Notes: generated from the letters alone by a model not told the origin. Positions 6,801 through 22,372 are shown, counted from the stretch's first letter. The stretch is DNA of 39,157 nucleotides from Candidatus Thalassarchaeaceae archaeon (GCA_034400015.1 DASCRU010000070.1:1-39157); one strand, 5' to 3'. Program-made: numbers and translations.

Positions 6801-7604
6801 GGGCCCTTTGAAGTGGGTCAGGATATTGTTTTCAGTGCTGAAGGAACTACCGATTCTACCCTCGACATGATGCGCTTAACATATCGATGGGATTTCAATA
6901 CTGGAGTTGATAGTGATGATGATGGGTTCACAGAAAACGATATCGAAGATGAGGGCTTTAGCGTAACACATGTGTTCAATGAACCAGGAACGTACATTGT
7001 ACGATTGACTGTAGGAGATGAATCAGAAGAGGACTCTGTTGATGTTCAAGTGATAGTTGAGGATACCAGTATTCTTGGTGGTTTACTAGATGTCGGATTT
7101 GGTGGAGCAAGCGCCACGACAGCGATTATTCTGATATTAGTAGTGGTTTTACTTTCACTTCTTGTTGGAATTGGAATGATGAGGCGAGGAAGTGGAAGTG
7201 ACTTTGAGTCTTATGGGGCTACATCTGCTCTACATTTGGGAGGAGCCCAGCAGCCTTCTATGCCTAGTGCTCCACCTCCTAATTACGCGTTTAATGAAGA
7301 GGCAAGTAGTGGCCCTCCAGTTCCTGCCGAGGGTCTTCCGTCAGGTTGGACTATGGAACAATGGAATCACTATGGTCAACAATGGTTAGATGGTCAACAG
7401 CAGACAGTTTCAGATCCAGTTGAACCTGCTTACGTTGCTCCAGTTGAACCTGCTTACGTTGCTCCAGTTGAACCTGCTTACGTTGCTCCAGTTGAACCAG
7501 TTACGCCTGCCGCCCCGTCAATGGAATCAATCTCCCCTGCGGTAGGCAAGACTCGTGAAATTGAAGAATTAGCTCAAACAGATATTCTAGATTTTGATTT
7601 GTGA
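3873..7604 (+). CDS. Giant cell-surface protein with a CARDB-like domain, about 5 PKD-like domains, a single C-terminal TM anchor and a repeat-bearing cytoplasmic tail
   Basis: 1243-aa ORF. The N-terminal hydrophobic signal is RRSALFIVLIFLLSSQLALF. The CARDB-like segment is LEFSIPVRNEGILTAPATELEITSPDG. PKD-like modules end in ...ATVTDDDGAVTSGSHSINVTN, ...MQATDNDNL, ...FHVTDDDGERA and YRWDFN...THVFNEPGTYIVRLTV. The TM helix is AIILILVVVLLSLLVGIGMM followed by RRG. The real start is probably ATG 3906 (MVASAVV...), because a 6-bp stem hairpin (3884-3899) sits inside the TTG-3873 extension. Confidence 0.8.
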   Translation: MVDTQPNGCRCMVASAVVPSRRSALFIVLIFLLSSQLALFQSPDPLDDIESSLHVMGVRNAQGSVDVPEWAVGDVWTYDAFFDVQELISSGAPGSNVGILRGTLTKEVIDTTIMMIENQSTIVYVVESSGTFQKNGISIVTDQATVTGDLRVVFESDELVRASDLGQITYNMDLDVDLRNIPFPISIITGSTLDLADLSIGTQYSPPKEYYDFPMAVGEYWNTSVTLSTTWSGSVYQNLFELPADSDDQSTESHGVTSVGNPGVGYSGCASSLNATSFNSTGAVTGFKWYCPTAKGEAWWHQELELGLQIDFKLLTYTPATRDPTISVETVFPAWPLNSNMGAWVNLTDPSTGSPLGNQGVQFRYESTGDYRALTTSTNGSAYVEFDTGAWPDPSPTTYDYASHGVIGWASATKSVGVSTMILDENLVEIDLAASSSGVSVSRIRDGVSEQLNSVTGFNSVPSDVLEFSIPVRNEGILTAPATELEITSPDGSSSRVNIPSLPARSEVRVDVQWTVPVGQTIGNSLLQFEVDPDVLVTADANRSNNADVFNIFVGRLPIAELSEMTSFYTLTTVVLDGSSSYDPDGASEILCTFRVHDHLAVDDNDGDPNDGIITRTIFTDSPDDCVLEWSWDDDGEYLVEFGIIDDELDSANTNMTVVVLNRAPEVVLSSDRSSVPVMDPITFNAFQHSDADTMTPEAPVDFLWEADCDQGRVTQLCTVVPMVEGIYTMRATVTDDDGAVTSGSHSINVTNIAPWNATISAADENGNSIEVDSQMVWHVLEDQPIVFTGTAQDSSNDVPSLSYEWWPDVEIDTSNSTIDSEAGASSSHTHSYSTHGMHVVQMQATDNDNLRTNVASGWLQVQNVPPTIDSFPTMLPIAEDQVLSVTGLFHDTASDIDTLHACWDINPSSNTDSVGSAEDDCDVEGADLAYSWPDAATAPSQVVFHVTDDDGERAVEMLNITIRNLRPKGAINMTEGPFEVGQDIVFSAEGTTDSTLDMMRLTYRWDFNTGVDSDDDGFTENDIEDEGFSVTHVFNEPGTYIVRLTVGDESEEDSVDVQVIVEDTSILGGLLDVGFGGASATTAIILILVVVLLSLLVGIGMMRRGSGSDFESYGATSALHLGGAQQPSMPSAPPPNYAFNEEASSGPPVPAEGLPSGWTMEQWNHYGQQWLDGQQQTVSDPVEPAYVAPVEPAYVAPVEPAYVAPVEPVTPAAPSMESISPAVGKTREIEELAQTDILDFDL
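7416..7498 (+). repeat. In-frame tandem repeat, 24 bp x 3 perfect copies plus an 11-nt partial copy, encoding (VEPAYVAP)n
   Basis: CCAGTTGAACCTGCTTACGTTGCT occurs at 7416-7439, 7440-7463 and 7464-7487. A partial copy follows at 7488-7498. It lies in the cytoplasmic tail of the 3873-7604 protein. Confidence 0.95.
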
Positions 7605-8917: not shown

Positions 8918-9388
8918 TTATTCGATATCTAAAATTTTCAGAATGCGCCCTACATGCCCAGTAGCTTTCACTCCTCTTCCTAGCCATTGGATTAGCCCAT
9001 CCTGATTGATGATAAATGTGCTTCGAATTGCCCCTATGTACACCTTCCCATAGTTCTTTTTCTCCCCCCATGCTCCGTATAATTGGTGGATTTCTGTTTC
9101 TGAATCTACAATTAAATCAAAATTCAAGGATTGGGAATTAATGAAACGAGTATGGCTTGCTGCGGAATCTCTTGAAACACCAACAACTGTCCAATTTTCA
9201 TCGTTTAATTTGGTTTTAGCATCACGAAAATCACATGCTTGAGTAGTGCATCCAGGAGTACTGTCCTTTGGATAAAAATAGAGGATGACTCCTTTTTGTT
9301 TCAATGCGTCTGATAGGGTCCACTCACTTCCATCTTGGAGTGTTGCAGTAAAATTAGGGGCTATATCTCCAATCTCTGGTCCGTCCAT
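8918..9388 (-). CDS. bcp: Thiol peroxidase / peroxiredoxin Bcp (PrxQ type)
   Basis: GDIAPNFTA..KGVILYFYPKDSTPGCTTQACDFRD contains the peroxidatic Cys in PGCT and the resolving Cys 5 residues later. GGAGGTG lies 9 nt upstream of the ATG. Confidence 0.85.
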   Translation of the reverse strand: MDGPEIGDIAPNFTATLQDGSEWTLSDALKQKGVILYFYPKDSTPGCTTQACDFRDAKTKLNDENWTVVGVSRDSAASHTRFINSQSLNFDLIVDSETEIHQLYGAWGEKKNYGKVYIGAIRSTFIINQDGLIQWLGRGVKATGHVGRILKILDIE

Positions 9389-9427: not shown

Positions 9428-10486
9428 CTATTTCGGGTCCTTTTCAGTGAAATCTACGATTTGTATTGCATCATCGGCAAGTTCCGAAATACTCCTTCGT
9501 CCATCTCGTCTACGAATTACTAGGCCTAATTCACTCATTCGAGTAACGGCTGCCACTCTCCTAAGTTGTAGTATTGATTTAGTCCAATTGAATGTGGTGC
9601 CTTCTCCAAATTTCCTTACCATCCTAGCATCCAATCTGTCGTTGCCAACAGATCCACCCCTCATGCCATCGATTATCGTTCTCATAATTTTCCATTCCAT
9701 TGGCAATCGATGATGAATGGAACCTAGAATCAAAGTTCTTTCTAGAGGGCTGAATGGCCCTTCATGAGCTAAATCTCTATCGATTATTGGATTTGGTAAA
9801 CGAGCTAAATCTACTCCATGAGGGGTTAATCTATGACCTTCTGAATCTTTTGAGGACCATCCAATGATTTCCATTGCTGAGAGTTTCATGGACCCACCTG
9901 GGGCTCCAATCATCCAATTTACTGTTCTACCTCTTGCATCATCATCTAGGTGGCTGAATCCTGCAGCTAGTCGTTCGCCTCTACCTCTTCCATATCTATC
10001 GTCTTCCAATGCCAATATTGCTCCGTTGAGTTGCAACATCTGATTCAATGCGGCTCTAAATTCTCCATCTGGCACAGATCGTTTTGTTTTGCTAGACATT
10101 GACCACAAGAGTCGGAGAGCATGTTTCATCGGTAATAATCGGAGTAAACCGGTGGGCAACATTTCATCTTCTAATCGCCCTATATTCGCCCCCGTCATCG
10201 GCTCCCCTCGAATAGAATCGAGTTGCAAGGACTCCCTGTTCCCCAAATCTCTCTCTGCTAGATGATCTCCGGCCTTTGATCTCCTATCCCATGCTCTTTC
10301 AGCAAGGCCAGATATGTTCTTGTTTCCAACTCTCGGAAGTTCATCACCACCTTCTCTTTGATTATCTGTTAATATTGAATTTGCACTTTGAATTAACCAA
10401 TCTTCTACGTTCATTCCATTGCTTTGAGCGGCTTGAATCCACTTGATTAGGCGTTCATCCTCTACTGAAAGAGTGACGTCAACCAT
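9428..10486 (-). CDS. Hypothetical protein; possible ribbon-helix-helix-like N-terminus and winged-helix-like C-terminus (putative DNA binding)
   Basis: 352 aa with no cysteine. The N-terminus is MVDVTLSVEDERLIKWIQAAQSNGMNVEDWLIQSA (beta strand plus two helices, CopG-like pattern). The C-terminus RVAAVTRMSELGLVIRRRDGRRSISEL looks like a wHTH. I recognise no family. Confidence 0.55.
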   Translation of the reverse strand: MVDVTLSVEDERLIKWIQAAQSNGMNVEDWLIQSANSILTDNQREGGDELPRVGNKNISGLAERAWDRRSKAGDHLAERDLGNRESLQLDSIRGEPMTGANIGRLEDEMLPTGLLRLLPMKHALRLLWSMSSKTKRSVPDGEFRAALNQMLQLNGAILALEDDRYGRGRGERLAAGFSHLDDDARGRTVNWMIGAPGGSMKLSAMEIIGWSSKDSEGHRLTPHGVDLARLPNPIIDRDLAHEGPFSPLERTLILGSIHHRLPMEWKIMRTIIDGMRGGSVGNDRLDARMVRKFGEGTTFNWTKSILQLRRVAAVTRMSELGLVIRRRDGRRSISELADDAIQIVDFTEKDPK

Positions 10487-10654: not shown

Positions 10655-11521
10655 TCATTCAACATCGAAGAAACATACTTCTTGTGGTGGATCTCCACTG
10701 CTGATTTGCCCTTTGAACTCACGTGGGCTCCCATCCACTGTAACTAGAATGTTGAATTCTGTTACGTCGTTTGAATCGTGTTTCTCAAAATGCTCAACAA
10801 ACACGCGAAATCGTCCTTGAGGGGCATCTTTTTCCCAGAATACATTCTCTACAGGTTCGTCTGAGTTTCCGCTTTCATTCATGTCGATATCTAAGCGGCC
10901 ACCACAGTTTGAGATTTTATTATCAAATGAAATTCGTTCACCACTGGGGCAAACAACTGATAGGTCCAAATCGTTCTTATTGAACCAAATCAAACTGACC
11001 TGTACTTCTCCAGTTTCAGCTCCTTCTCGTCCAAGGCGTTCTGCGAAAACGTCCTCCTGTTCTGCCTCAACCTCAGTACCAATAACTTCTACATCGTCCA
11101 AATCGGGCGCTGAAGGTAAATCGCTAGCTTCTGCTTCCTCCTCTTCTTCTGCAACTTCCTCGAGAATTGTTTCTTCAACTTCGGGTTCTTCCTCTTCTTC
11201 CAAAATTGGACCAGGGGATGATGTTGGCATAGATGAGCTAGAAGTGGTCGTGTTTACTTCTACGCTTCGATCCAGTTGTTTTCTAGGGCGCCTGAGACCT
11301 TTGTCGATTAGTGGTGCAGGAAGTGAGGCCATTGATGGAAGCAATGCCCTCCGGGCATCTCCTCGAATTATTCGGTAGATTCCTTGGAGGGAGCCCACTG
11401 TCAAGGTGGCTATGACGGCTCCACTGACGGGGTCCATAATGAGCCTGAGGGAACTTGAAGTATGTCTTCGTTTCGTTTGAATTAGGATTGAATGAAAGAA
11501 TGTAATGTGCGGTTCCTTCAT
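10655..11521 (-). CDS. Hypothetical protein: weak N-terminal hydrophobic segment, poly-acidic linker, C-terminal DUF2135/YfaP-like beta-sandwich
   Basis: The C-terminal segment VSLIWFNKNDLDLSVVCPSGERISFDNK..CGGRLDIDMN...PVENVFWEKDAPQGRFRVFVEHF fits the pattern L.W....DLDLhV..P.Ge........GG.L..D.......E.v.......G.Y.v.V. The linker is EEEEEPEVEETILEEVAEEEEEAEA. The start is uncertain. Options are ATG 11521 (GGAGG 3 nt upstream), ATG 11437 (MDPVSGAVIATL) or GTG 11572 (ORF maximum). Confidence 0.55.
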   Translation of the reverse strand: MKEPHITFFHSILIQTKRRHTSSSLRLIMDPVSGAVIATLTVGSLQGIYRIIRGDARRALLPSMASLPAPLIDKGLRRPRKQLDRSVEVNTTTSSSSMPTSSPGPILEEEEEPEVEETILEEVAEEEEEAEASDLPSAPDLDDVEVIGTEVEAEQEDVFAERLGREGAETGEVQVSLIWFNKNDLDLSVVCPSGERISFDNKISNCGGRLDIDMNESGNSDEPVENVFWEKDAPQGRFRVFVEHFEKHDSNDVTEFNILVTVDGSPREFKGQISSGDPPQEVCFFDVE

Positions 11522-11562
11522 ATTCCTCCGGGAACTGGTTATGGGATAGCGGAGGCCATGCA

Positions 11563-11979
11563 ATGACTGCACGTTTGGGTAGAAAGGCTAGAAGATACCT
11601 CCGTCGTATCCAGAAGGCCCGTATCTTGCAAGACCTTCAGTTCATTGCGAACGAAATTCAAACAGAGGTTGATTCTCGTTCTGTGAATTTTGAAGAAGCC
11701 AATCATTTGGGTAATCGAATCCAAGAAAGGGCAGATTTGATTGATGAGAATGGGTTGGTGTATGCAATTAGTGACAGGGACACATATCGTAGGACTTTGG
11801 AGATTTATCTCAAAGATGGATTGCTTACCCGTACAGAGCAGATGTTGCTGTGGGATGAGCGTAGGAAACTTGGAATTAGTGAAGAAGAACATACTCGGTT
11901 GTTGGACAAGTTAGTTTCATTGTATCGGGGGCAAGGTCGCTCAATCAGGATTCAGAAGTCTTCTGGAGGTAGTTCCTGA
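11563..11979 (+). CDS. Small basic helical protein, first gene of a coupled three-gene module (function unknown; weak TerB-like pattern)
   Basis: 138 aa. GGAGG (11551-11555) lies 7 nt upstream of the ATG. The N-terminus is Arg-rich (MTARLGRKARRYLRRIQKAR). The segment DGLLTRTEQMLLWDERRKLGISEEEHTRLL resembles TerB/DjlA-N-type helical repeats, with low confidence. Its stop overlaps the next start (TGATG, 11977-11981). The antisense ORF 11539-11892 looks non-protein-like. Confidence 0.6.
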   Translation: MTARLGRKARRYLRRIQKARILQDLQFIANEIQTEVDSRSVNFEEANHLGNRIQERADLIDENGLVYAISDRDTYRRTLEIYLKDGLLTRTEQMLLWDERRKLGISEEEHTRLLDKLVSLYRGQGRSIRIQKSSGGSS

Positions 11980-14900
11980 TGAAGATTTTTCAGTCGATTA
12001 TTCTGGTATTATTATTGCTAGTTTCTTCTTTGGGACAATTAGCGATTTACAACCTTGATGAACCACAGTCATTTACTTCTGGACGTTCAGTAGATATTTC
12101 TGTAGATTTAGTAGAAATAATTTCACCTTCTTCAGTAATTGGCGGAACACATACATTGGCAGAGGGGACCCAAGTAGTCAGAGTTAGAATTGTAAATCTT
12201 GGAACTACTACAGCAACTGGTACATTAGAACTCAATGTAGGGGTGAATTCAGGAGCGCCATCTGTGGTTGATTCTGTTTCATTTACTTTAGCTGGAAGTA
12301 CTTCTGAGACTCATCTAATGGAATGGGTGCAACCTTCTGGGACGGCAGACGTTTTTGTAGTTGCTACAGCGGGTTCTGATTCCGATCCAGCAAATGATCA
12401 ATTCACAATCCCCGATACTCTCACCGTCCTAGATACCTCTGATTATCTCATTGTTTCCGATACTCTCCCCAATGATGGCGCAATTATTGGTAGGGATATG
12501 TGGCATGGTGATTGGGTATTCTCAAACACGGGCAATATCCCATTTACTGCGGAAGGACAATTGATTCTAACACCTGCTTCCGGTGGCTCAAATATCGATG
12601 TAACATCTAGTGTTACTCATGCACCTCCTGGTTCTATTTCGGCCAATGCAGGAAATTCCGTAGTGAACCTATCCTTCGACGGTTCTCCTTTAACTGGTAC
12701 ATACACGTTAAGCGGGCTGTTTGAGATTACTTTTGACGATGGCTCGACTGCCGATATACCCATCTCTTCTCGGAATATAGTGTTGACAGATTCCCATGCG
12801 ACTCTGACTCCTCCGTCAAATATTTCGGTTGACCCAGGTAGTGGAACCGGCCTCCTTTTCATTGTTCAGAATGTCGGTTCTACTTCAGATACTTACTCTG
12901 TAGAATATAGTAATGTTTCAGGGTGGGTGGACCCCTCCACGCTACCTCTTACAATAAACAATCTTGCAGCCAATACCGGTGCCCCAATCAATGTCCCTGT
13001 TGATGTCCCGATAACCGCAAATCGATCAGATGTGGAGACTGTCACTGTTTACGTGAACAGTACCACTACCGGTGTGAGCGTTTCTGCTAGAGCATCAGTT
13101 CTAGCAGGAGATCTCTTCCAGTCGGACTTACAGAGCAATGGTAGTCTAGTCTACATTGATCCAGGTTCATCAGTAGTCGTTGATTACACACTGGTCAATA
13201 CAGGAACATCTCCCGCACATTTTGATTTAACAGCTGGGCTTCAAGAAGAACCCAACGGTTGGTTAGTCGAAATTGATCCGGAGATGACTGATTTAGTTTC
13301 ACCGGGAAATACTAGGGCAGTCACAATCACAGTCTCTGCTCCAATATTGGAATCCCCTCTTGATCCAGAAGCCAAGATTTCCGCAGGAAATAGATTGCAC
13401 CTCCGCGTGACTTCTACGCCAGTAGAAGGAAATGCAGCCCTTACTGCATCAAATATTACCGATATCGAGGTTCGTCCATCAGTTAGTGTCTCGATGAATC
13501 CTTCTGTAGATGAATTGGTATTTTCGACAGCAGATTTAGAGGAGGGGGATGTCTTTGATTTATTTGATTTGGAAGTTATTTTGTTGAGTAACTTTCCATC
13601 GGGTACAATAGGTTCCGCAGTCGTGAATATTACCTCTTCCCCAACTTCATTTAGTTCTGTAGATGGGGCGTCTTATGGAGCCCAAGAAATTTTGAGATGG
13701 AACTCTACAGTAGCACCTGGTTCTGTAATTTTAAATCTTGGAGAATCACGAACTGTAGTCACTTCCGTACTTGGTCCTAATGATGCCCTTCCTGCTGCTG
13801 GGATTCTGAATTTCACTCTTTCAGCCACGACATCTTTGAGTGGTATGGTAGGCATCACTTCTCCTGAGACAACTGCCTCATTCAGAGTAATTATTGAAAC
13901 TGTGATTGATGGCGAGTTAGAAGATAGCCCACTTGTCGCAGGAGTTCCTGGAGTAGAGAACAATGCCACATTGATCCTTACCAATAATGGAAATGCTCTT
14001 GCAGATTATACTCTCTCTAGTCCCGGTCTTCCAAATTGGGTTGTGAATCTAACTCCAAACGCAGTCACTGCATTAGCACCTGAAGTTGGCACATGGCCCT
14101 CTGGAATAGATTCAGTGTTTCAAAATGTCGTGGTCACAGCCACTCCTCCTACTGATGCTAGAGCTGATATCGTTCACGAGATCGAAATTTTGGTATTCGA
14201 TGGAGAAGGTAGATTTGTAGATAATGGATCCGCTAGATTTGTTCTTGATGAAGTGATAGGTGCTTCGATAGAACCCGATGAAATGTACATTGAAGTTCCT
14301 TCTGAGGGTACACAAACAGCAAGTTTCCAAGTCAGGAATTTGGGTAATTCTCTTCAGACATATGATATTTCAACAGGAAATTTTGTTGGTGGAACTGATT
14401 TCACAGTTGGTGCACCTAACAGTGTAACATCTGATCCTGGGGCAAACATCACTCTAACACTCGATGTTACTGCATTAAGTAGTGCTAGAGCCGATTCAAC
14501 CTATTCGTTTCAACTAATTCTAGAACATTCTGGTATTGAACAGGACCGTTTGACGGTGCGAGTAGGAATTGAGAAGGTACATGATCTTCGATTATCTCAT
14601 GATTCTTCTTTTGAGGCAATTCCTGGGGAAACGTTGACCCTGCCTGTAACAATTGAGAATCAAGGCAATCTTCGAGAAGTAGGTTCATTCAACCTATCTA
14701 CTCCTGCCGGTTGGATACAATCATCAGATGCGATCGACATCTTGCCGGGGGAAACCATTTCCGGATTGTTAGTTTCCCTCACTGTTCCTGCTTTGGATTC
14801 AGAAGAGGTCCCTATGGCTGGGCAAGTGTATACCATCCCAATTCTTGCAATTAATGCAACGGATAATCTAACCATCGGAGAATCCACTGTGACTGTTACA

Positions 14901-16691
14901 ATCAAACCGGTATTCCAACTTGTGATGGCTTCGTATCCAATACGAATTGCAAGTATCCCTGGCGAATCTAGAGATGTAGCATATCTAATGAGGAATGCAG
15001 GGAATGATGCAGTTATTCTCGATGTTACTTGTTTATTGGACGCATCTGCTGTGGGTCGATGGTCAGCGCCTGTTTGCCCTGCAACGTTAGAATTAGCACA
15101 GGGGGGAGAGCGTTGGATAAATCTCTCAATGACTCCTACTGATGATAGGCATTGGGATAAAGAATCCGGCACGTTGTCCTTTGATTTCATTCCACGTGGA
15201 GAAGTGGGTGGAAATGCGAGTTGGTCAACCCCTCTTTCCGTAGAGCGAGTACAAACTGATGACCCTGTAATCCTACGTGGTTCCGATGGCCCACAAAACA
15301 CATTGAACATTGATTGGATGCATGTACCTGAATTGAGCCAAACCGGTACCTTGACTCCATCATCTTATTCTCTAAGATATGTCTCTGCAGAAAGAACTGT
15401 GAATGCTTCTCTATATCCTGAAACTTTGTGGAGTTTTGCTATCCCAGGGGGGCCAAGTCCATTGGTTCCAGGAGATATCCATTCTCTTGGTTCTGCTTCC
15501 CCCTATGCTCTTGATTCCTTTGATATTCAGATAACCATGCCCGATTCTACTTCTATTGCACCAGGTGATGGTTGGAATCTCACATTTAATCTTGAGAATC
15601 TCGATGAGGCGGGGAGTCGGCCAGGAACAAATTTTGTAATTAAATTAAGAATGGATTCCTATAGCGATCCTCGAATTGTAGGAGTTAGTTTTAGTTCAGG
15701 TACTCTTGTGGAAGGAAGCACTACTGACTTGATTGTGAACGTTACGAATTCTGGGACTGCAATCCTCCCTCTCTATAGCTTTGTAACACTTTCATGTGGC
15801 GACTCAGTCACTATTTCTGATAATTCACCCAAGGTTATTCCATCATTGGGGGTTCAAGAATCGGTTGAAGTAAATTGGACTGTAACTGCTGATCCATTAC
15901 CCTGGTACCTGACTCAAGGCGATTTGGAATGCACCGTCAAATTGTCGTTGCCTGACTCCGTCTATGGAAATGAAGAAGAAAATGACATTGATATCCGAAT
16001 GCTTTCGATTGATTCATGGAGTCCTGGCTTCCTTGTTAGTTTAGTTTCTGGAATTTTAGTAATGGTCCTGTCTTTGTTCTTATTCAGGAGGGGGCTGGAT
16101 GATGATGAACGAGCCCTGCATGGTTCAACGTATATCGCTATGTTAGGACTTGCAATATTTGCTCGTTCATCCGTAATTGCAGATATTGGTATGATCTGTA
16201 TAGTTCTTGCAACACTTTGGATGATGGTGGTATCCTGGTTAGGTGCTGGTGAGATTCAGGCAATTCATGATGACCGTCGAAAGGCCTTGATAGGTGAGAG
16301 GGCAGCTCTTGGTAATCATGCTGATGAGATTGAAACAACAAGACGCGAAGTTGGACTAATTCTACTCGGTGCTCCGATATTTTTCGTATTAATGATGACG
16401 ATCGATCCTAGTTTGAAGGTCGATATAAGTGCCATAGGCATTGGGTCTAGTATTGGCTACATTCTTGTTGTTGGAATAATGTGTCTTGTGGTCCTTAGAT
16501 ATCTGGACCGTCTTTACGGATTGCTGCATAACGATTTGGCAGCATTGGATATTCGAACGGCTAGGATTCGAGGTATTCTTCAGAGTAGAACACAGAATCG
16601 TACCAATCTATTTTCCTCGCCTCCTCCAAAGCCCGAAGCATTCAATCAGGAAATGGATTCAGATGGAATTGAAGGGGGTGAAGAGGAATGA
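11979..16691 (+). CDS. Giant (1570 aa) surface protein: signal peptide, at least 9 CARDB/NEW3-like beta-sandwich repeats, C-terminal ~5-TM membrane module
   Basis: The signal peptide is MKIFQSIILVLLLLVSSLGQLA. A strand motif x-[VI]-x-N-x-G recurs: VRIVNLGTTTA, FIVQNVGSTSD, YTLVNTGTSPA, LILTNNGNALA, FQVRNLGNSLQ, VTIENQGNLRE, YLMRNAGNDAV, IVNVTNSGTAI. P.GW follows in several repeats. From about nt 16020 there are hydrophobic helices: FLVSLVSGILVMVLSLFLF, YIAMLGLAIFA, IGMICIVLATLWMMVVSWLG, VGLILLGAPIFFVLMMTI and IGSSIGYILVVGIMCLVVL. The tail is acidic (DSDGIEGGEEE). GGAGG lies 9 nt upstream of the ATG. Confidence 0.85.
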   Translation: MKIFQSIILVLLLLVSSLGQLAIYNLDEPQSFTSGRSVDISVDLVEIISPSSVIGGTHTLAEGTQVVRVRIVNLGTTTATGTLELNVGVNSGAPSVVDSVSFTLAGSTSETHLMEWVQPSGTADVFVVATAGSDSDPANDQFTIPDTLTVLDTSDYLIVSDTLPNDGAIIGRDMWHGDWVFSNTGNIPFTAEGQLILTPASGGSNIDVTSSVTHAPPGSISANAGNSVVNLSFDGSPLTGTYTLSGLFEITFDDGSTADIPISSRNIVLTDSHATLTPPSNISVDPGSGTGLLFIVQNVGSTSDTYSVEYSNVSGWVDPSTLPLTINNLAANTGAPINVPVDVPITANRSDVETVTVYVNSTTTGVSVSARASVLAGDLFQSDLQSNGSLVYIDPGSSVVVDYTLVNTGTSPAHFDLTAGLQEEPNGWLVEIDPEMTDLVSPGNTRAVTITVSAPILESPLDPEAKISAGNRLHLRVTSTPVEGNAALTASNITDIEVRPSVSVSMNPSVDELVFSTADLEEGDVFDLFDLEVILLSNFPSGTIGSAVVNITSSPTSFSSVDGASYGAQEILRWNSTVAPGSVILNLGESRTVVTSVLGPNDALPAAGILNFTLSATTSLSGMVGITSPETTASFRVIIETVIDGELEDSPLVAGVPGVENNATLILTNNGNALADYTLSSPGLPNWVVNLTPNAVTALAPEVGTWPSGIDSVFQNVVVTATPPTDARADIVHEIEILVFDGEGRFVDNGSARFVLDEVIGASIEPDEMYIEVPSEGTQTASFQVRNLGNSLQTYDISTGNFVGGTDFTVGAPNSVTSDPGANITLTLDVTALSSARADSTYSFQLILEHSGIEQDRLTVRVGIEKVHDLRLSHDSSFEAIPGETLTLPVTIENQGNLREVGSFNLSTPAGWIQSSDAIDILPGETISGLLVSLTVPALDSEEVPMAGQVYTIPILAINATDNLTIGESTVTVTIKPVFQLVMASYPIRIASIPGESRDVAYLMRNAGNDAVILDVTCLLDASAVGRWSAPVCPATLELAQGGERWINLSMTPTDDRHWDKESGTLSFDFIPRGEVGGNASWSTPLSVERVQTDDPVILRGSDGPQNTLNIDWMHVPELSQTGTLTPSSYSLRYVSAERTVNASLYPETLWSFAIPGGPSPLVPGDIHSLGSASPYALDSFDIQITMPDSTSIAPGDGWNLTFNLENLDEAGSRPGTNFVIKLRMDSYSDPRIVGVSFSSGTLVEGSTTDLIVNVTNSGTAILPLYSFVTLSCGDSVTISDNSPKVIPSLGVQESVEVNWTVTADPLPWYLTQGDLECTVKLSLPDSVYGNEEENDIDIRMLSIDSWSPGFLVSLVSGILVMVLSLFLFRRGLDDDERALHGSTYIAMLGLAIFARSSVIADIGMICIVLATLWMMVVSWLGAGEIQAIHDDRRKALIGERAALGNHADEIETTRREVGLILLGAPIFFVLMMTIDPSLKVDISAIGIGSSIGYILVVGIMCLVVLRYLDRLYGLLHNDLAALDIRTARIRGILQSRTQNRTNLFSSPPPKPEAFNQEMDSDGIEGGEEE

Positions 16692-17536
16692 TTGGCAATA
16701 ATCCAATGGATGATTTGATGGGTTCGGGTGCAGATGCTTCCTCAAGATTCGTCGATCAATTGACTATTCGTTCAGCACGAGTGCGTCATTTCCTTTGGAA
16801 TCACAGGCCTTTCAAGGCTAGAGCCGATTTGAGGGAAGCAAATAGGGATGCGGAATTCCTTGAAAAACAGGTGATTCGCCTTCATCGTTCTTTATTGGCT
16901 TTGGAACAGCATCTAGCCGGACTTGATGATTTAAGTGAGGAAGAAATGAGGGCAAGGGGAATAGTCACAGATGGATTGATTGATCTCGGAAAAGGGGAGT
17001 GGGAAGCGGCTTTGGATTCATTCCGTACAGCAATCCAATCGTTAAGCGCATCTGGTGGAAGAGTGAACCCATTCGTAGCTGGACGTTTCTTCTTCACCGT
17101 GGAGGCTCGCTGGCCACCTGAATTGGAGCACGGTTTACTCATGATGACGATTGAGAATCTTGGAGAACATGATCTTCCTGCGATGAGAATTGCAGCACCA
17201 GCGCCCACTGGGTGGGTTGCTGAACCCAAGGCCGCTCAGATTCCCGTTATCCCTCCTGGGGGAGTTATTGAGATGGGTATCCACATTCACCCTACAGGGA
17301 CAATTTCAGAAAATCTAGTGTTATCAAAGCAAGTCTCAGTAGTTACTGGATACATGGTAGATATGGGCGATATCTCAGTCATGTCGCGGATTGAGAATCG
17401 TACTTTACGAACAATTGACGGTTTTGTTGTAGATGTTTGGCTTCCACCTGGTTTCGCCGCAAAACGAGTGCCCTTTGTCCAAAATCTTACTCCCGGGGAA
17501 GTCGTTCATGTACCGACTGAAATAGATGCAAGATAG
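16688..17536 (+). CDS. Hypothetical protein without signal peptide: helical N-half plus CARDB/NEW3-like beta-sandwich C-half
   Basis: It overlaps the upstream gene by ATGA. GGTGA lies upstream. The N-half is helical (LEKQVIRLHRSLLALEQHLAGLDDLSEEEMRARG, GEWEAALDSFRTAIQ). The C-half (LLMMTIENLGEHDLPAMRIAAPAPTGWVAEPKAAQIPVIPPGGVIEMGIHI) has the same domain pattern as the giant protein. Confidence 0.7.
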   Translation: MIGNNPMDDLMGSGADASSRFVDQLTIRSARVRHFLWNHRPFKARADLREANRDAEFLEKQVIRLHRSLLALEQHLAGLDDLSEEEMRARGIVTDGLIDLGKGEWEAALDSFRTAIQSLSASGGRVNPFVAGRFFFTVEARWPPELEHGLLMMTIENLGEHDLPAMRIAAPAPTGWVAEPKAAQIPVIPPGGVIEMGIHIHPTGTISENLVLSKQVSVVTGYMVDMGDISVMSRIENRTLRTIDGFVVDVWLPPGFAAKRVPFVQNLTPGEVVHVPTEIDAR

Positions 17537-17625
17537 CTTTCATTATCCACTCAGGACTTTGAATTTATGCGGTCTTAGGATTACTATGATATACTTCAAT
17601 GAATTGCAACAGGTTGGTGAACACC

Positions 17626-18204
17626 ATGAACAACAGAAACACACCCTACAAGAATGACGATGCAGCATCGATTGGAATCGGTGCAATGATTGTATTTATT
17701 GCCCTAATATTGGTAGCAGCAGTAGCATCTACAATCATTATCAAGACCGCAGAAGAACTACAGCAACGTGCTGAAGCAACGGGTGATGATACCCGTGACG
17801 AAATTTCCGGAAAGGTAACAATCGTCTCAGCTCATGTTGATGGTGTGACGACAGGGGCCGTTACTCAAATATTGGTCATTGCTCAGATGAGTGCTGGTTC
17901 AGATGACGTCACTGGCGGAGATATCACATACGTAATTGTCTGTGAAGATCCTGGTACTGCTGGGTCTGCTCTCACCGATATTGACCTAATCACAAACGGA
18001 AACTCCGCAGAACTTGATGGAACAGGTATCGCGGCCGGAACAACCATAGATTCTGGTACAACTTTCACCTTTGAGATGACACTAGCAAACTGCAACCCTG
18101 GTGCAGGTGACGCAGTTGAGGTACGTCTCGTCGTCAATGGCGGCGGAGAAACATACGCACAGATGGAAGTTACTTCCCTTGATGGCGGCGCAGTCTTAGT
18201 TTGA
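17626..18204 (+). CDS. arlB: Archaellin (archaeal flagellin FlaB/ArlB), single copy
   Basis: It has a class III signal peptide and conserved hydrophobic N-terminus: MNNRNTPYKNDDAAS-IGIGAMIVFIALILVAAVASTIIIKTAEELQQRAEATG. GGTGA lies 5 nt upstream of ATG 17626. The longer ORF from ATG 17599 would give an atypically long leader peptide. Confidence 0.85.
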   Translation: MNNRNTPYKNDDAASIGIGAMIVFIALILVAAVASTIIIKTAEELQQRAEATGDDTRDEISGKVTIVSAHVDGVTTGAVTQILVIAQMSAGSDDVTGGDITYVIVCEDPGTAGSALTDIDLITNGNSAELDGTGIAAGTTIDSGTTFTFEMTLANCNPGAGDAVEVRLVVNGGGETYAQMEVTSLDGGAVLV

Positions 18205-18276: not shown

Positions 18277-19077
18277 ATGGAAAGTCAAGAAGGCCGCATT
18301 GCGGATAGGCTAGACGAAGCATCTCGAGTCACAGTGGATCAGATAGATATTCCTCCAGAATATCGTCCTACCGACCTTGAAGCCTGGTTGTTCACCCCAG
18401 GCGCAACTCGTGTAGGATTCATGGGCGACATGGGTTCAAGACCTCCATCTGGATCTCCTCCATCTGGAACTACATCTTCGGGGCCAGCTCCTGATGAATT
18501 ACTTCGTATGCTTGCGGACCGTTTTGAGCGGTTAGAAGCATCAATAGGTCATATGGAGACCAATTTAGCTCTAGGACAGGTATCTGGAGGAGGTGTTTCT
18601 GTATCTGATGTGATTCACACAGTAGGAGATGATGGCGAAGTATCCTCAGTTTCATTGAATGAATTAGGAGAAGGTACTGATGCTCTTCATTCAGGTCCGG
18701 ATTTACTTGATTTGTATGAGGCCCAGTCACTTGCATTGAATCCATTCCTTCGGTCTAAGGATGCAGGGATTTCTGGACCAGGAGTAGATCCTGCAAAAAT
18801 CGCCGCACTTATTCTAGACAATCTATCTGGAAGTGATGCCCAATCATTCATTCAAGCCGCTGCCAAAAGCGGCTTTCTCAATTCACAAGAAGCGAAGACA
18901 CTCAGTGGGATTACGTCATTGGCTGAACCCGGAGAGAGTAGTGGAAGTGCAACACTCCCTAATCGCCCTCTATTGATTTTCGTTGCAATGGTGGATGCAT
19001 GGCGGTCGCAATCATCGTCCATTCGTCATTCTTCAATTCCTTCAGCACCCATGGTTGATGTTGAACCGGGGGAGTGA
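18277..19077 (+). CDS. Hypothetical protein occupying the ArlC/D/E position of the archaellum operon
   Basis: 266 aa. GGAG lies upstream of the ATG. It has a Pro/Ser linker (RPPSGSPPSGTTSSGPAP) followed by a short coiled-coil-like stretch (DELLRMLADRFERLEASIGHMETNL), vaguely FlaC-like. I saw no recognisable FlaD/E domain motif and no TM helix. Confidence 0.6.
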   Translation: MESQEGRIADRLDEASRVTVDQIDIPPEYRPTDLEAWLFTPGATRVGFMGDMGSRPPSGSPPSGTTSSGPAPDELLRMLADRFERLEASIGHMETNLALGQVSGGGVSVSDVIHTVGDDGEVSSVSLNELGEGTDALHSGPDLLDLYEAQSLALNPFLRSKDAGISGPGVDPAKIAALILDNLSGSDAQSFIQAAAKSGFLNSQEAKTLSGITSLAEPGESSGSATLPNRPLLIFVAMVDAWRSQSSSIRHSSIPSAPMVDVEPGE

Positions 19078-19080
19078 GAT

Positions 19081-19476
19081 GTGGGCGGTTCTGCCAGCGT
19101 CGGCGCCTTAATTGTAGGCACAGTTCTTTTGTCTATCTTTGCTAATGCAATGGTCATTACTCTGGAAAATCGGCAAAGATTTGAAGATATTGATGAGGAT
19201 AAATCCAAAGATGTTGAAGTTAGAGTAGTCAATGCTACTCTGGTTACTTCTACCCTCTTCATCAACATCACAAATGATGGTTCTGATCCGGTATTATTTT
19301 CTGATATTTGGATAATTTTGGACGGAGGGAATCCACTTCCATTCACCGACTATTTTTCATCAAACGAATACTTGTTCCCTGGGGAGAATGTCATGGGTTC
19401 AGATACGGTGCCAGGTACTCCAAATAGGGCATTTGTTTCATCATATGGGCACGGTTCAGGAGTTACAATCCAGTAG
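19081..19476 (+). CDS. arlF: Archaellum protein ArlF (FlaF)
   Basis: GTG start with GGGGGAG upstream. The N-terminal helix is GGSASVGALIVGTVLLSIFANAMV. A beta-rich domain follows (VEVRVVNATLVTSTLFINITNDGSDPV). Size (131 aa) and operon position match FlaF. Confidence 0.7.
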   Translation: MGGSASVGALIVGTVLLSIFANAMVITLENRQRFEDIDEDKSKDVEVRVVNATLVTSTLFINITNDGSDPVLFSDIWIILDGGNPLPFTDYFSSNEYLFPGENVMGSDTVPGTPNRAFVSSYGHGSGVTIQ

Positions 19477-19484
19477 GTGATATT

Positions 19485-19958
19485 ATGTCGGATGGGGGTG
19501 CGTCGGAAATGATCATGCTCGTAGCTAGTCTGATTGTGGCTGGAGTCGTTTCTGCAGTTCTCATTCAAGCATGGGGGGGTGTTTCTTATGCATTGGATAG
19601 TGGAGCAGATCAGATTGAAGCAAATGCAAACACAGATGCTACATTAGTTAGTGACCCTATGAACATTAATTGGAATCCATCTCTCAATCAAACCATGATA
19701 ACAGTGCAAAATACTGGAAATTCAGTTCTCAATATTACCTCTACTACAGTTCTTCTAAATGGTTCACTCATGAACGTAACTCAAAGAGGAGCCATTCCAT
19801 CTGTTTGGTTACCTGGTACGATAGTAAATTTCACGATTCAGGCGGCAATTCAGTTATCTACTAATGATGAAGTGTTTCTCAATGTGGTTGTTTTAACGGA
19901 AACATTGAGTCCTGCCCAAGGAGTCAATTCATTTACGGAGGTGGTGCGAATTGTATGA
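19485..19958 (+). CDS. arlG: Archaellum protein ArlG (FlaG)
   Basis: The N-terminus GGASEMIMLVASLIVAGVVSAVLI matches the FlaG signature (ASE.IMFIAA..VA). The segment ..LVSDPMNI.. resembles methanococcal FlaG. AGGTGA lies 6 nt upstream of the start. Confidence 0.8.
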   Translation: MSDGGASEMIMLVASLIVAGVVSAVLIQAWGGVSYALDSGADQIEANANTDATLVSDPMNINWNPSLNQTMITVQNTGNSVLNITSTTVLLNGSLMNVTQRGAIPSVWLPGTIVNFTIQAAIQLSTNDEVFLNVVVLTETLSPAQGVNSFTEVVRIV

Positions 19959-20640
19959 AGACTCATTTCCGTTTGGATTAGAGCAAGATAGTCTTGCCAA
20001 CAGCCTAGGTGCCGCCATTCCTAATCGGTCTCTTATGCTTGTAGAAGGCGACATAGGTGGAGGAAAGAGCCTAATTGCACAGCGACTTGCTTATGGTTTG
20101 GCTGAAAATGGGACTAAGGTGGCATTAGTGACTACTGAATTGACCACGAGAGGTTGGCTTGAACAAGTGGCTAGCATTGGTTATGGGATGTCGGATTATA
20201 TCGATAAAGGCCAATTTTTATTGATATCTAGATTTGGAGTTCTAACTGATGAGGTAGAGGTCGAAATCACTATTGAGGACCTTCTTTCAAATGAAGGCCT
20301 CAAAGCTGCAGATTTTGTAATTATTGATCGAGCATCGCAATTAATTCAAGAGGGAACAAATCCGGCATCCTTCCTATCAGCAATCCGTCGATTTACAGCG
20401 GAGGGGAGAACTCTGATGTTATGTATTGACTCTGATGAAGTAGAACCAGCCTTATTGCGCGATATCAAAGGTTCTGCAGAAGTAGTTCTAGGCCTTTTGG
20501 CCTCCACACAGGGGGGCCAACTGAATCGAACACTTGCAGTCACTCGTTTCCTTAGGGCTGCAGGTCCAGTTCAAGCTCGAATAGGATGGAGGGTGGAACC
20601 TAGCATGGGCTTCATCGTCGATATTACGGCGGTCAGTTGA
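19951..20640 (+). CDS. arlH: Archaellum ATP-binding protein ArlH (FlaH), KaiC/RecA-like
   Basis: Contains SLMLVEGDIGGGKSLIAQRLAYGLAENGTKVALVTTELT (Walker A in a KaiC-like context). The TTG start overlaps the arlG stop by 8 nt. The first in-frame ATG would delete the region preceding Walker A. Confidence 0.8.
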   Translation: MYEDSFPFGLEQDSLANSLGAAIPNRSLMLVEGDIGGGKSLIAQRLAYGLAENGTKVALVTTELTTRGWLEQVASIGYGMSDYIDKGQFLLISRFGVLTDEVEVEITIEDLLSNEGLKAADFVIIDRASQLIQEGTNPASFLSAIRRFTAEGRTLMLCIDSDEVEPALLRDIKGSAEVVLGLLASTQGGQLNRTLAVTRFLRAAGPVQARIGWRVEPSMGFIVDITAVS

Positions 20641-20650
20641 GGTGTGACCA

Positions 20651-22372
20651 ATGGCAGAAGAAGAGGAAATTGGGATCCAAAAGGGGGACCTTGAGGGGCT
20701 TATGGCCAAACATTCTCATGTTCGAAAATGGGTGGAAGATTTTGAAGCCCAACATGGCTCTCGACCCTTTTTCTATGGCCCGTTGGATAGGGGGGCGAAA
20801 AGCATCGAACCACGTAATCTGATTTACAGCCTTAAACCACCTCTTTTTGCCCATATTTACAAGCCACCAGATGACGATGAACAGGGTGCAGGGACTACGT
20901 TATGGTTTGGAATTGAACCGGTTTTGAATGAAGAAGAGGAAGTTATTCGACAGGAGATTGTTGATCGACTTTTACGTGATGCACCAAGTGCACCATCATT
21001 CACATCTGATTCTGAATTCGAGGGTATTCTTGAAGGGATGATAGACAGGATGACTACTTCACGTTCCAGTGTTATTCAAACAGAGAACGTCCTTGGCCCT
21101 GCAATGAGTTTTCTAGGATTTGGAGAATCACCTGTGGAGGTCACAGAAGAGCAATTGGTGCGATTGAAGTACATTATTATCCGTGATTTGGTTAAATCCG
21201 GTCCATTAGAAGCACTTCTTTCTGATGAAATGCTAGAGGATATTCATTCTGTAGGTTTGAGATACATCAACATGGATCACAAGGTATTCGGAATGGTGAC
21301 ATCAAACATCCGATTTAGAGATGTAGATGTTCTAGGCAGGTATCTCCGTTCGATGTCTGAACGTATTGGTCGGCCAGTTTCCGACAGTAAACCGATTATT
21401 GATGGGGCATTACTTGACGGTTCAAGAATCAACATCATTTTCAGTGATGATGTTTCCATGCTTGGTCCATCATTTACAATCCGAAAATTCGCCGAAGAGA
21501 CCATTTCGTTCACACAATTAGTACAATGGGGGACTATGTCTTCTCAACAAGCAGCATACATTTGGCTTGGTCTTGAGAATGGTATGTCTCTTCTTGTATC
21601 TGGAGAAACAGCCTCTGGGAAAACGACAACATTGAATGCAATATTGCCGTTCATTGATCATAATGTGAAAATATATTCTGCAGAAGATACTCCTGAAGTT
21701 AAGGTGCGTCACCGACTGTGGCAACGTTTGGTAACTCGTGATTCAAAGAATGAAGATTCACGGGTAGAGATGTTCGATTTATTGAAGGCTGCTCTAAGAT
21801 CTAGGCCACGTTATATCATCATTGGTGAGATTCGTGGTGTAGAGGGCGCCACTGCATTCCAAGCAATGCAGACTGGGCACCCTGTGATTGCAACATTCCA
21901 CGCATCATCGATTGTCAAGATGATTCAGCGATTTACTGGCGACCCAATCAATGTCCCCGCTCGATTCTTCGATAACCTCAATTTTGCAATTTTCCAAGAA
22001 GTTGTGGAAGCACCAGGTGGAGGAATAGCTAGAAGGATAACAGGGATTGATGAGGTAATTGGATACAACAAATATGCCGATGGAATCTTGACTAGAGGGA
22101 TGTTTGAGTGGGATCCGGTTCAAGATAAGCATTACTTCAGAGGAATGTTCCAATCACATTTGATGGAGAACAAGATGGCTCCCATGATGGGTTTTTCAAA
22201 TAAACGTGATATTTACGACGAAATGGAACGAAGGACAGAAGCCATTCAGAGAATGGTTGATCGTGAATTGACGCATTATGACGATGTATTCGACCTTTTA
22301 GACGTATATTACCAACAGGGGTGGGAGCAATTCTCCTCTGCCATCGATACCTGGGAAGGGATAAATCATTAG
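20651..22372 (+). CDS. arlI: Archaellum motor ATPase ArlI (FlaI), type II/IV secretion ATPase superfamily
   Basis: The Walker A is LVSGETASGKTTTLNA. Other motifs are RPRYIIIGEIRGVEGATAFQAMQTGH and ATFHA (Asp/His boxes). GAGGTG lies upstream of the ATG. Confidence 0.9.
   Translation: MAEEEEIGIQKGDLEGLMAKHSHVRKWVEDFEAQHGSRPFFYGPLDRGAKSIEPRNLIYSLKPPLFAHIYKPPDDDEQGAGTTLWFGIEPVLNEEEEVIRQEIVDRLLRDAPSAPSFTSDSEFEGILEGMIDRMTTSRSSVIQTENVLGPAMSFLGFGESPVEVTEEQLVRLKYIIIRDLVKSGPLEALLSDEMLEDIHSVGLRYINMDHKVFGMVTSNIRFRDVDVLGRYLRSMSERIGRPVSDSKPIIDGALLDGSRINIIFSDDVSMLGPSFTIRKFAEETISFTQLVQWGTMSSQQAAYIWLGLENGMSLLVSGETASGKTTTLNAILPFIDHNVKIYSAEDTPEVKVRHRLWQRLVTRDSKNEDSRVEMFDLLKAALRSRPRYIIIGEIRGVEGATAFQAMQTGHPVIATFHASSIVKMIQRFTGDPINVPARFFDNLNFAIFQEVVEAPGGGIARRITGIDEVIGYNKYADGILTRGMFEWDPVQDKHYFRGMFQSHLMENKMAPMMGFSNKRDIYDEMERRTEAIQRMVDRELTHYDDVFDLLDVYYQQGWEQFSSAIDTWEGINH

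Follow-up and report, generated by a model that had tools for sequence, protein, structure and literature searches.

What is the function of the three overlapping genes that stand directly upstream of the archaellum (arl) genes in Marine Group II (MGII) archaea, and do these genes belong to the archaellum? MGII are the dominant planktonic archaea of the surface ocean, they are uncultured, and it is debated whether their archaellum serves swimming or attachment. ArlF and ArlG constitute the extracellular stator of the archaellum, which is thought to hold on to the surface layer (S-layer), and the cytoplasmic ring around ArlH and ArlI is formed by ArlX in Thermoproteota or by ArlC/D/E in Euryarchaeota, where it is coupled to chemotaxis via CheF. 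Both the bracing of the archaellum against the envelope and the substitutes for ArlX and ArlCDE outside the model phyla are open issues in the field. For example, stator bracing is an open question in the Thermoplasmatales, which have no S-layer (PMC12448462), and the cytoplasmic ring protein is unidentified in some archaellated lineages (PMC8978795), and all archaellated archaea are said to retain a divergent ArlCDE (Makarova 2016). The locus analyzed here is part of a 39,157-nt stretch of DNA from a Candidatus Thalassarchaeaceae archaeon (GCA_034400015.1, DASCRU010000070.1:1-39157), a member of Marine Group IIb (MGIIb) within the order Poseidoniales. This whole stretch is referred to as the window and all positions refer to it; the three genes of the module are designated g1, g2, and g3, and u266 denotes a 266-aa open reading frame (ORF) of the arl cluster.

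The analysis presented here addresses the organization and conservation of the g1-g2-g3 module and the predicted topology and folds of its products. The data favor a dedicated accessory of the archaellum over a general S-layer protein. The reading proposed, which is put forward tentatively and with somewhat less than an even chance of being correct, is that g1-g2-g3 is a lineage-specific accessory of the MGII archaellum cluster that acts as an envelope-spanning anchor or scaffold. It is based on the synteny of the module and the arl genes in both directions, translational coupling, the conserved topology of g2, and the association between loss of g1 and the charge of the g2 tail. It is also based on the lack of a detectable ArlX or ArlC/D/E in the cluster and of chemotaxis genes in MGII (PMC6461757), as well as on the precedent of envelope-specific accessories in or beside other archaellum loci.

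Organization of the module

The module consists of g1 (11563-11979, 138 aa), g2 (11979-16691, 1570 aa), and g3 (16688-17536, 282 aa), all on the plus strand. The initial annotation had described these as ORFs joined by overlapping stop and start codons, each preceded by a GGAGG or GGTGA element, and the sequence agrees with that description throughout. The g1 stop overlaps the g2 start in TGATG (11977-11981), and the g2 stop overlaps the g3 start in ATGA (16688-16691). Shine-Dalgarno-like GGAGG elements on the same strand precede the g1 ATG by 7 nt (11551-11555) and the g2 ATG by 9 nt (11965-11969), and a GGTGA element within the 3' end of g2 (16677-16681, plus strand) precedes the g3 ATG by 6 nt. 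Relatives retain the g2/g3 junction GAATGATG, and almost every lineage shows an overlap of the g1 stop with the g2 start. Over 72 distinct g1/g2 junctions, the closest g2 start codon precedes the end of g1 by a median of 8 nt, and over 76 g2/g3 junctions the closest g3 start codon precedes the end of g2 by a median of 1 nt. With more than 70 distinct junctions and order-level divergence, the coupling and the gene order are far beyond chance.

Downstream of g3, the archaellin gene arlB (17599-18204, plus strand; Pfam Arch_flagellin, 2.5e-17) follows at a distance of 62-89 nt in the window, as the initial annotation had it, depending on whether arlB starts at 17599 or at 17626. The latter start is predicted to be more likely; with it, the S-I-G-I-G-A-M core is preceded by a class III signal peptide of 14 residues, as in other archaellins, and with the ATG at 17599 by 23 residues. 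In every locus compared, the g3 stop and the archaellin core are 93-288 nt apart.

Conservation of the module in Poseidoniales

A scan with a g1 alignment, using one genome per GTDB species, matched 199 genomes, the best 80 of which were examined; synteny counts refer to the loci with enough downstream DNA. Among these 80 species, g1 was accompanied by g2 in 72/72 loci, by g3 in 58/58, by arlB in 38/38, by u266 in 35/35, and by arlH in 33/33, and the order was g1, g2, g3, arlB, u266, arlF/G, arlH, arlI in all of them. The reverse test on metagenome contigs, anchored on u266, retrieved arlB in 31/31 loci, g3 in 21/21, and g2 in 17/17, and the loci anchored on two divergent g3 homologs contained the same cluster. 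The expectation that the trio would be syntenic in relatives was thereby borne out. The gene order is kept despite between-family identities of 22-33% for g2 and 27-34% for g3, and g1 is 52-57% identical between the families, which is on par with ArlH and ArlI. Judged by co-location and co-orientation with arlB/F/G/H/I/J in both directions, the module behaves as a component of the archaellum cluster.

The genomes examined were nearly all labeled as Poseidoniales or with a broader archaeal name, and three carried bacterial labels. These three metagenome-assembled genomes (MAGs), labeled Rhodobiaceae (L065), Salipiger bermudensis (L067), and Verrucomicrobiales (L069), contain a complete MGIIa-type module with arl genes and look like archaeal contigs that were mis-binned into bacterial MAGs. 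A mobile element or defense system was considered as well and discarded, given the stable chromosomal synteny and the absence of such domains.

The synteny also bears on the possibility that g2 is a general envelope or S-layer glycoprotein of archaellated MGII, with g3 and g1 as its chaperones or insertion factors and the adjacency to arl as a matter of co-regulation or frozen gene order. The ectodomain families of g2 (NEW3, CARDB, and choice-of-anchor T; see below) are typical of anchored surface proteins, glycosylation sequons are numerous, and the whole neighborhood is fairly stable, with a peroxiredoxin gene upstream in 57/72 loci. Moreover, S-layer-like genes are found close to the type IV filament loci of many archaea and were judged to be inconsistent components there (PMC4858521). 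However, the two-way synteny knows no exception across two families of which the flanking genes differ, and coupling to two proteins without transmembrane (TM) segments, combined with a polytopic base, is unusual for S-layer proteins. Half of the MGIIb genera lack the archaellum cluster altogether (PMC6461757), and a general wall protein would be expected to persist in such genera. Taken together, a general S-layer function appears rather unlikely.

The trio is not invariant. To the initial question of whether the trio co-occurs and is always next to arl genes, the answer is affirmative for the arl linkage; g1 is missing from one subclade and a gene is inserted in another set of species. In 13/80 species a gene of about 1050 aa separates g1 from g2, located for example at 10443-13595 of L077, and also found in L004, L021, L029, L033, L035, L038-L040, L048, L051, L052, L062, and L167. 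Its product has an N-terminal TM anchor and a long, highly charged, probably cytoplasmic coiled coil; it has no Pfam match and carries two copies of the small beta-domain of a 305-aa neighbor of the module in the window. In five metagenome contigs (L110, L130, L132, L141, L148), the g1 hidden Markov model (HMM) found no g1 within loci of 11-21 kb, the positive control scoring 6e-69, and a relocated or fused g1 was likewise not encountered within the loci searched. The absence of g1 is regarded as a secondary loss, since g1 is present in both families and the loci without it are closer to the window than MGIIa is (u266 is 46-49% identical). The g2 tail in this subclade is shorter and carries a net positive charge (+2 to +9 in 4/4), whereas g2 orthologs adjacent to g1 have a net acidic tail in 67/67 distinct cases (-18 to -1, median -9). 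The subclade furthermore encodes a longer g3 of 344-351 aa, with an extra duplicated helical hairpin of about 60 residues, and two archaellin genes. The charge pattern hints that the Arg-rich N-terminus of g1 may bind the acidic g2 tail, and that g3 may use the same docking site.

Topology and domain composition of g2

Hydropathy analysis indicates a Sec-type signal-like N-terminus in g2 (residues 1-27; 11979-12059, plus strand), with Lys at position 2 followed by a hydrophobic core of 16-18 residues, and an N-terminal hydrophobic segment was present in every g2 ortholog examined, in agreement with the signal peptide assigned earlier. The predicted ectodomain (residues 47-1335; 12117-15983, plus strand) is composed of beta-sandwich repeats of the NEW3/CARDB/choice-of-anchor-T type. 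A repeat HMM, seeded by the six occurrences of the strict motif [VILF]x[VILMF]xNx[GS] and iterated on g2 itself, delineated eight repeats (residues 47-167, 275-367, 385-482, 646-742, 763-851, 871-960, 983-1073, and 1234-1335), of which 385-482 and 983-1073 were recovered from outside the seed set. At least nine repeats had been claimed; eight are demonstrated in this way, and a ninth is plausible from the gaps, which leave room for about four more domains (some 12 in all), without being demonstrated.

Comparison with the domain libraries yielded 37.1 bits for Pfam NEW3 (PF10633, NPCBM_assoc; gathering cut-off 24.4) at residues 394-455, 30.8 bits for a HYDIN/VesB-type immunoglobulin (Ig) domain in Pfam (cut-off 25.5), and 74.3 bits, barely over the cut-off of 70, for the NCBIfam choice-of-anchor T model (NF041740), which matched three stretches with the best at 267-456. 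The ectodomain contains 22% Ser plus Thr, 0.5% Lys, and 23 N-glycosylation sequons. Judged by composition, g2 is typical of archaeal surface proteins and thus predicted to be extracellular, and g1 and g3 have a cytoplasmic composition.

The C-terminal part of g2 consists of a predicted polytopic membrane base of about five hydrophobic helices (residues 1346-1510; 16014-16508, plus strand), assigned on basis of hydropathy and the positive-inside pattern, with segments at approximately 1346-1368, 1384-1403, 1403-1426, 1456-1476, and 1488-1510. Basic residues are found after TM1, throughout the loop 1427-1455, and after TM5. If the N-terminus is outside, this loop and the tail are predicted to be cytoplasmic, with or without membrane insertion of the weaker TM2/TM3 pair. 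The loop (about 1427-1455) carries a charged motif, E-x-x-x-I-H-D-D-R-R-K...G...H, that is conserved in both families. The predicted cytoplasmic tail (residues 1511-1570; 16509-16688, plus strand) comprises an amphipathic basic helix, a Pro-rich linker, and an acidic end that terminates in DSDGIEGGEEE. The layout of the base, the loop motif, and the amphipathic helix after TM5 are kept in 12 diverse g2 orthologs from both MGII families, in which at least 3-5 segments were counted, and g2 has no single C-terminal TM segment or sorting signal (PGF-CTERM and similar). The hydrophobic C-terminal region is, as far as predicted topology can tell, not a single anchor, and the polytopic base with an acidic tail that was recognized initially thereby gains the support of ortholog conservation.

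Such a base could also be the transmitting part of a sensor for surface contact or adhesion, in which g2 would bind particles or algal surfaces and strain or ligand binding would be relayed by the base to g3 and g1, which would start, stop, or switch the archaellum, in place of the missing chemotaxis input. An attachment function was suggested earlier for the archaellum of MGII, which lack che genes (PMC6461757). Besides, the adhesin-like Ig-repeat ectodomain diverges fast between the families, the base, with several TM segments and a conserved loop on the cytoplasmic side, exceeds in complexity what anchoring would require, and the ArlH- and ArlI-like conservation of g1 is expected if it touches a conserved motor part. 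Nevertheless, no recognizable signaling domain (kinase, receiver, HAMP, PAS, GGDEF, etc.) was found in g1-g3 in Pfam and NCBIfam, domains for ligand binding, such as lectin or vWA, are absent from the g2 ectodomain, and the synteny suits a structural role equally well. A contact sensor is considered doubtful, although it ranks as the main alternative; if true, it would show how an archaeon without chemotaxis controls its motor.

The soluble proteins g1 and g3

No part of g1 or g3 matched a characterized family above threshold in Pfam and NCBIfam, as the initial annotation required, and profile searches against PDB sequences with g1 and g3 returned coiled-coil noise and one NEW3-like domain. 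The description of g1 as soluble, Arg-rich, and all-helical is corroborated by hydropathy and by an AlphaFold2 (AF2) model: it contains 20 Arg (14.5%), most of which are among the first 20 residues, no hydrophobic segment, and six modeled helices (pLDDT 88.6), the N-terminal one being strongly basic. An alignment of 15 sequences has 44 invariant columns and displays a conserved C-terminal hairpin motif, SDRDxYRR...LLTRTEQxLLW[DE]ERRxLG. Among PDB structures, Foldseek found no neighbor of g1, the matches returned being mostly designed TPR proteins with a best E of 0.24. An exhaustive HMMER profile search of 1.84 billion representatives retrieved a handful of full-length relatives and no domain fusions, the other hits being family fragments and motif-level matches. 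Remote matches cover residues 70-120 only, approximately, where the hairpin overlaps sub-threshold matches to TerB, Tic110, and ENT. The early suggestion of a TerB relationship survives as this sub-threshold motif resemblance; membership of TerB (PF05099) was rejected, since there was no Pfam match at E <= 0.1 and no TerB neighbor in Foldseek.

The proteins that share the hairpin remotely often bear AsnC-type helix-turn-helix (HTH) domains. This feature, together with the position of g1 as first gene of the cluster, its very basic character, and its high conservation, would suit a small nucleic-acid-binding regulator of the cluster, acting at the transcriptional or translational level, rather than a structural partner of g2. 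Such a role is very unlikely: neither HTH nor another DNA-binding fold was detected in g1 (Pfam, AF2, Foldseek), the g1 stop overlaps the g2 start as described above, and presence or absence of g1 tracks the charge of the g2 tail.

For g3, hydropathy analysis revealed no hydrophobic segment, including at the N-terminus, which agrees with the earlier statement that it lacks a signal peptide and TM helix. The combination of a helical N-half and a beta-sandwich, also noted before, is reproduced by the AF2 model (pLDDT 81, from a 30-sequence alignment), which has four helices within residues 7-121 and beta-strands at 133-277. In the alignment the latter region divides into a pair of consecutive units, in both of which an [IV]-E-N strand and a P-x-G-[WF] turn recur. 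The g3 of the window scored 18.1 bits with Pfam NEW3 (E 0.003), under the threshold of 24.4, and 9/11 g3 orthologs matched NEW3 at E <= 0.1 (best 1.1e-5), and two matched an adaptin-appendage Ig domain. Some database homologs have a precomputed PF10633 match, and the NEW3-like domain found by the PDB profile search forms the C-terminus of a GH20 enzyme (E 6e-4). The model itself found generic Ig-like neighbors only when compared with the PDB by Foldseek, at low TM-scores (adaptin-appendage, MSP-like).

The arl cluster and the cytoplasmic ring

Downstream of arlB the plus strand of the window encodes u266 (18277-19077), arlF-like (19081-19476; NCBIfam ArlF 4.8e-5, under the curated cut-off) and arlG-like (19485-19958; NCBIfam ArlG 4e-18, under the curated cut-off) stator genes, arlH (19951-20640; Pfam KaiC-type ATPase), arlI (20651-22372; Pfam T2SSE), and arlJ (22393-24189; Pfam T2SSF). 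The soluble, lineage-specific u266 protein, encoded between arlB and arlF, combines a short stretch of coiled coil with a C-terminal domain that is helical and conserved (LYEAQxLxxNPFL ... WR), and it was present downstream of arlB in all Poseidoniales arl clusters examined. It has no match in Pfam or NCBIfam, and eight orthologs gave no FlaC_arch or Arch_fla_DE match at E <= 1; likewise, g1 and g3 had no ArlC/D/E match (FlaC_arch, Arch_fla_DE) at E <= 1 in Pfam. ArlX was not recognized among g1, g3, and u266 at E <= 0.1 in Pfam and NCBIfam, libraries that possibly hold no ArlX model, and none of the three has a TM segment. Since simple HMM searches can miss ArlC/D/E proteins because of their divergence (Makarova 2016), u266 may be remotely related to them, and its position suggests that it is a candidate for a divergent ArlC/D/E-type component.

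The absence of a recognizable ArlX or ArlC/D/E from the cluster also allows a reading in which g3, with or without g1, replaces the ArlX/ArlCDE ring, the g2 base serves as a mere tether, and the ectodomain is secondary. In its favor, g3 combines a helical domain of the oligomerization type with Ig-like domains as in cytoplasmic scaffolds, as its Foldseek neighbors illustrate, and ArlX is membrane-tethered as well (PMC8978795). Against it, u266 is the more economical candidate, being soluble, bearing a coiled-coil segment, and occupying the exact arlC/D/E position of euryarchaeal operons; moreover, g3 and u266 are unrelated by hhalign, and a conserved ectodomain of 1,300 residues can hardly be called secondary. 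This replacement is judged quite unlikely.

An invariant N-P-F-[LIV] motif is present in both g3 (residues 127-129) and u266 (155-158). It prompted a comparison of g3 and of g1 with u266, in which hhalign returned probabilities of <2%, so that kinship was dismissed; the common motif could be a docking motif or a coincidence.

Proposed function

In the favored reading of g1-g2-g3 as an archaellum accessory, g2 would be exported by Sec and would display an Ig-like beta-sandwich stalk of about 1,300 residues outside the cell, probably glycosylated, while the polytopic base would root it in the membrane with the conserved loop and the tail toward the cytoplasm. The g3 and g1 proteins would be cytoplasmic partners that arise from coupled translation and dock on the g2 base, g1 probably binding the acidic tail. 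On the outside, the module would provide the ArlF/G stator or the emerging filament with a fixed envelope partner, and on the inside it would link this partner to the cytoplasmic face of the motor, the site of ArlX or ArlCDE in other archaea. The physical complex, its contacts with Arl proteins, and the anchoring role are inferred, whereas the data demonstrate the genes and their coupling, the two-way synteny across the order, the predicted topology and folds, and the correlation of tail charge with g1.

In a more far-reaching version, the g2-g3-g1 complex of Poseidoniales would span the envelope and replace the S-layer as partner of ArlF/G and, together with u266, the ArlX/ArlCDE ring around ArlH/ArlI. 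Such a double replacement is rather speculative and on balance improbable; if true, it would represent a third architectural solution to the stator problem of the archaellum, in the most abundant planktonic archaea.

Several observations weigh against the accessory reading. It is assumed that the envelope of Poseidoniales calls for a special anchor, and a long Ig-repeat stalk suits an adhesin equally well. The module is plastic, with g1 dispensable in one subclade and an extra gene in another. The correlation of g1 with tail charge probably reflects a single evolutionary event and is for that reason given little weight. Finally, arlB appears to have its own promoter-like box in the subclade of the window (see below), and the trio may thus be a separate transcription unit.

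Relation to known systems

The co-location of conserved genes with the archaellum cluster is not new, and the general idea that an archaellum locus may encode an Ig-rich envelope protein has been published as well. Conserved unannotated genes have been drawn in a 'putative MGII motility operon', and the region was noted as conserved (Tully 2019, PMC6336850, Fig. 4). Moreover, S-layer-like multi-Ig proteins occur in archaellum loci of Methanococcales and Thermococcales, for which local modification of the S-layer was proposed (bioRxiv 10.64898/2026.04.22.720090; Makarova 2016). The initial claim that the combination is undescribed therefore holds in part: co-location and the Ig-protein theme have been published, and for the architecture and the coupled partners no description was found. 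Specifically, the literature searched contained no description of a polytopic base with conserved cytoplasmic loop and tail, of two coupled cytoplasmic partners of which one is from an orphan family, or of the order-wide two-way synteny and the pattern of g1 loss and tail charge.

The module shares with the Methanococcales (arCOG05057) and Thermococcales precedent a large secreted multi-Ig protein in or beside the arl cluster. It differs from arCOG05057, in a comparison made by description only, in the polytopic base of about five TM helices with cytoplasmic loop and tail, in the coupling of g2 to two cytoplasmic proteins, and in its location upstream of arlB in a different phylum-level lineage. 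Similar to ArlX and ArlC/D/E, which are lineage-specific and poorly conserved cytoplasmic proteins of arl clusters, some of g1, g3, and u266 may fill such a role, yet they have no detectable sequence similarity to these proteins. In addition, g1 and g3 lack the TM segment of ArlX and are encoded upstream of arlB instead of between arlB and arlF, and unlike in ArlCDE systems, MGII have no CheF or other Che proteins that such a switch could read.

Accessory genes directly upstream of an arl locus are also known from Chloroflexota, where PilO-LysM and PilN genes were proposed to encode wall anchors (PMC12488501). These are likewise specific to the envelope type of the host, but they are unrelated to g1-g3, bind peptidoglycan via LysM, include no giant Ig-repeat protein, and belong to horizontally acquired loci. 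The concept of ArlF/ArlG and the S-layer, in which a rotating machine needs a fixed extracellular partner, applies equally here, as ArlF-like and ArlG-like genes are present; g2, however, would be the partner and not the stator, its interaction with ArlF/ArlG being pure inference. With NEW3, CARDB, and 'choice-of-anchor' (COG1470-type) surface proteins, g2 has in common its above-threshold matches to PF10633 and NF041740 and a typical repeat motif and composition. Those families are defined by their ectodomains only; they are usually anchored by a single TM segment or sorting signal and have no dedicated cytoplasmic partners and no link to the archaellum.

The present work gives names and architectures to genes that so far were drawn as black boxes. 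Comprising a giant component outside the cell and two components inside, invariably linked to the cluster, and predicted to span the membrane, the module is a testable candidate for both the bracing of the archaellum and the substitution of ArlX/ArlCDE. It thereby offers a lead on stator anchoring and motility control in an uncultured, globally dominant group.

Spacer elements and neighboring genes

The spacer between g3 and arlB contains an A/T-rich box, ACTATGATATACTTC (17583-17597, plus strand), which is a candidate TATA-type promoter element of arlB and is identical in L007, L010, L013, and L016, members of the subclade of the window, while the surrounding spacer varies. In MGIIa (e.g., L030 and L042), this spacer has, instead of the box, a GC-rich hairpin, CCACCCTC...GAGGGAGG, with an A-run and GGTGA behind it. 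This suggests that the two families differ in how they transcribe or process the archaellin gene. A scan for sigma-70 promoters and intrinsic terminators, a type of scan unsuited to archaea, remained at background level, and Rfam and tRNA scans of the window gave no matches. An archaellin-like transcription start site from Red Sea mdRNA-seq (PMC5069720) was set aside as expression evidence, since it concerns a PilA-type pilin and not this cluster.

The remainder of the window encodes TBP, mevalonate kinase, an H+-pyrophosphatase, and other housekeeping functions, which mark its source as archaeal, and the names of nearly identical database proteins assign it to Candidatus Thalassarchaeaceae. 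The peroxiredoxin (AhpC/TSA) gene mentioned above is located at 8918-9388 on the minus strand; it recurs upstream of the module in 57/72 loci that represent both families, so that the archaellum cluster itself is regarded as conserved in its place on the chromosome. Two more genes adjacent to the module, at 10655-11437 and 9428-10486 (both minus strand), are kept only in MGIIb (28/72 loci), where they are divergent from g1 in the subclade of the window and co-directional in others (8131-9989 in L077). One product, of about 260-400 aa, has a TM helix at its N-terminus, followed by an acidic linker and, at the C-terminus, a small beta-domain (LxWxxxxDLDL...GGxLDxDMN...EN), a topology that is ArlX-like. 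The other product, of about 320-350 aa, has a possible ribbon-helix-helix-like N-terminus. Finally, a second giant surface-type protein of 1243 aa, with a TTG start and PKD and CARDB domains, is encoded at 3873-7604 (plus strand), about 4 kb upstream of the module, and L047 has a similar ORF of 1242 aa upstream of its module.

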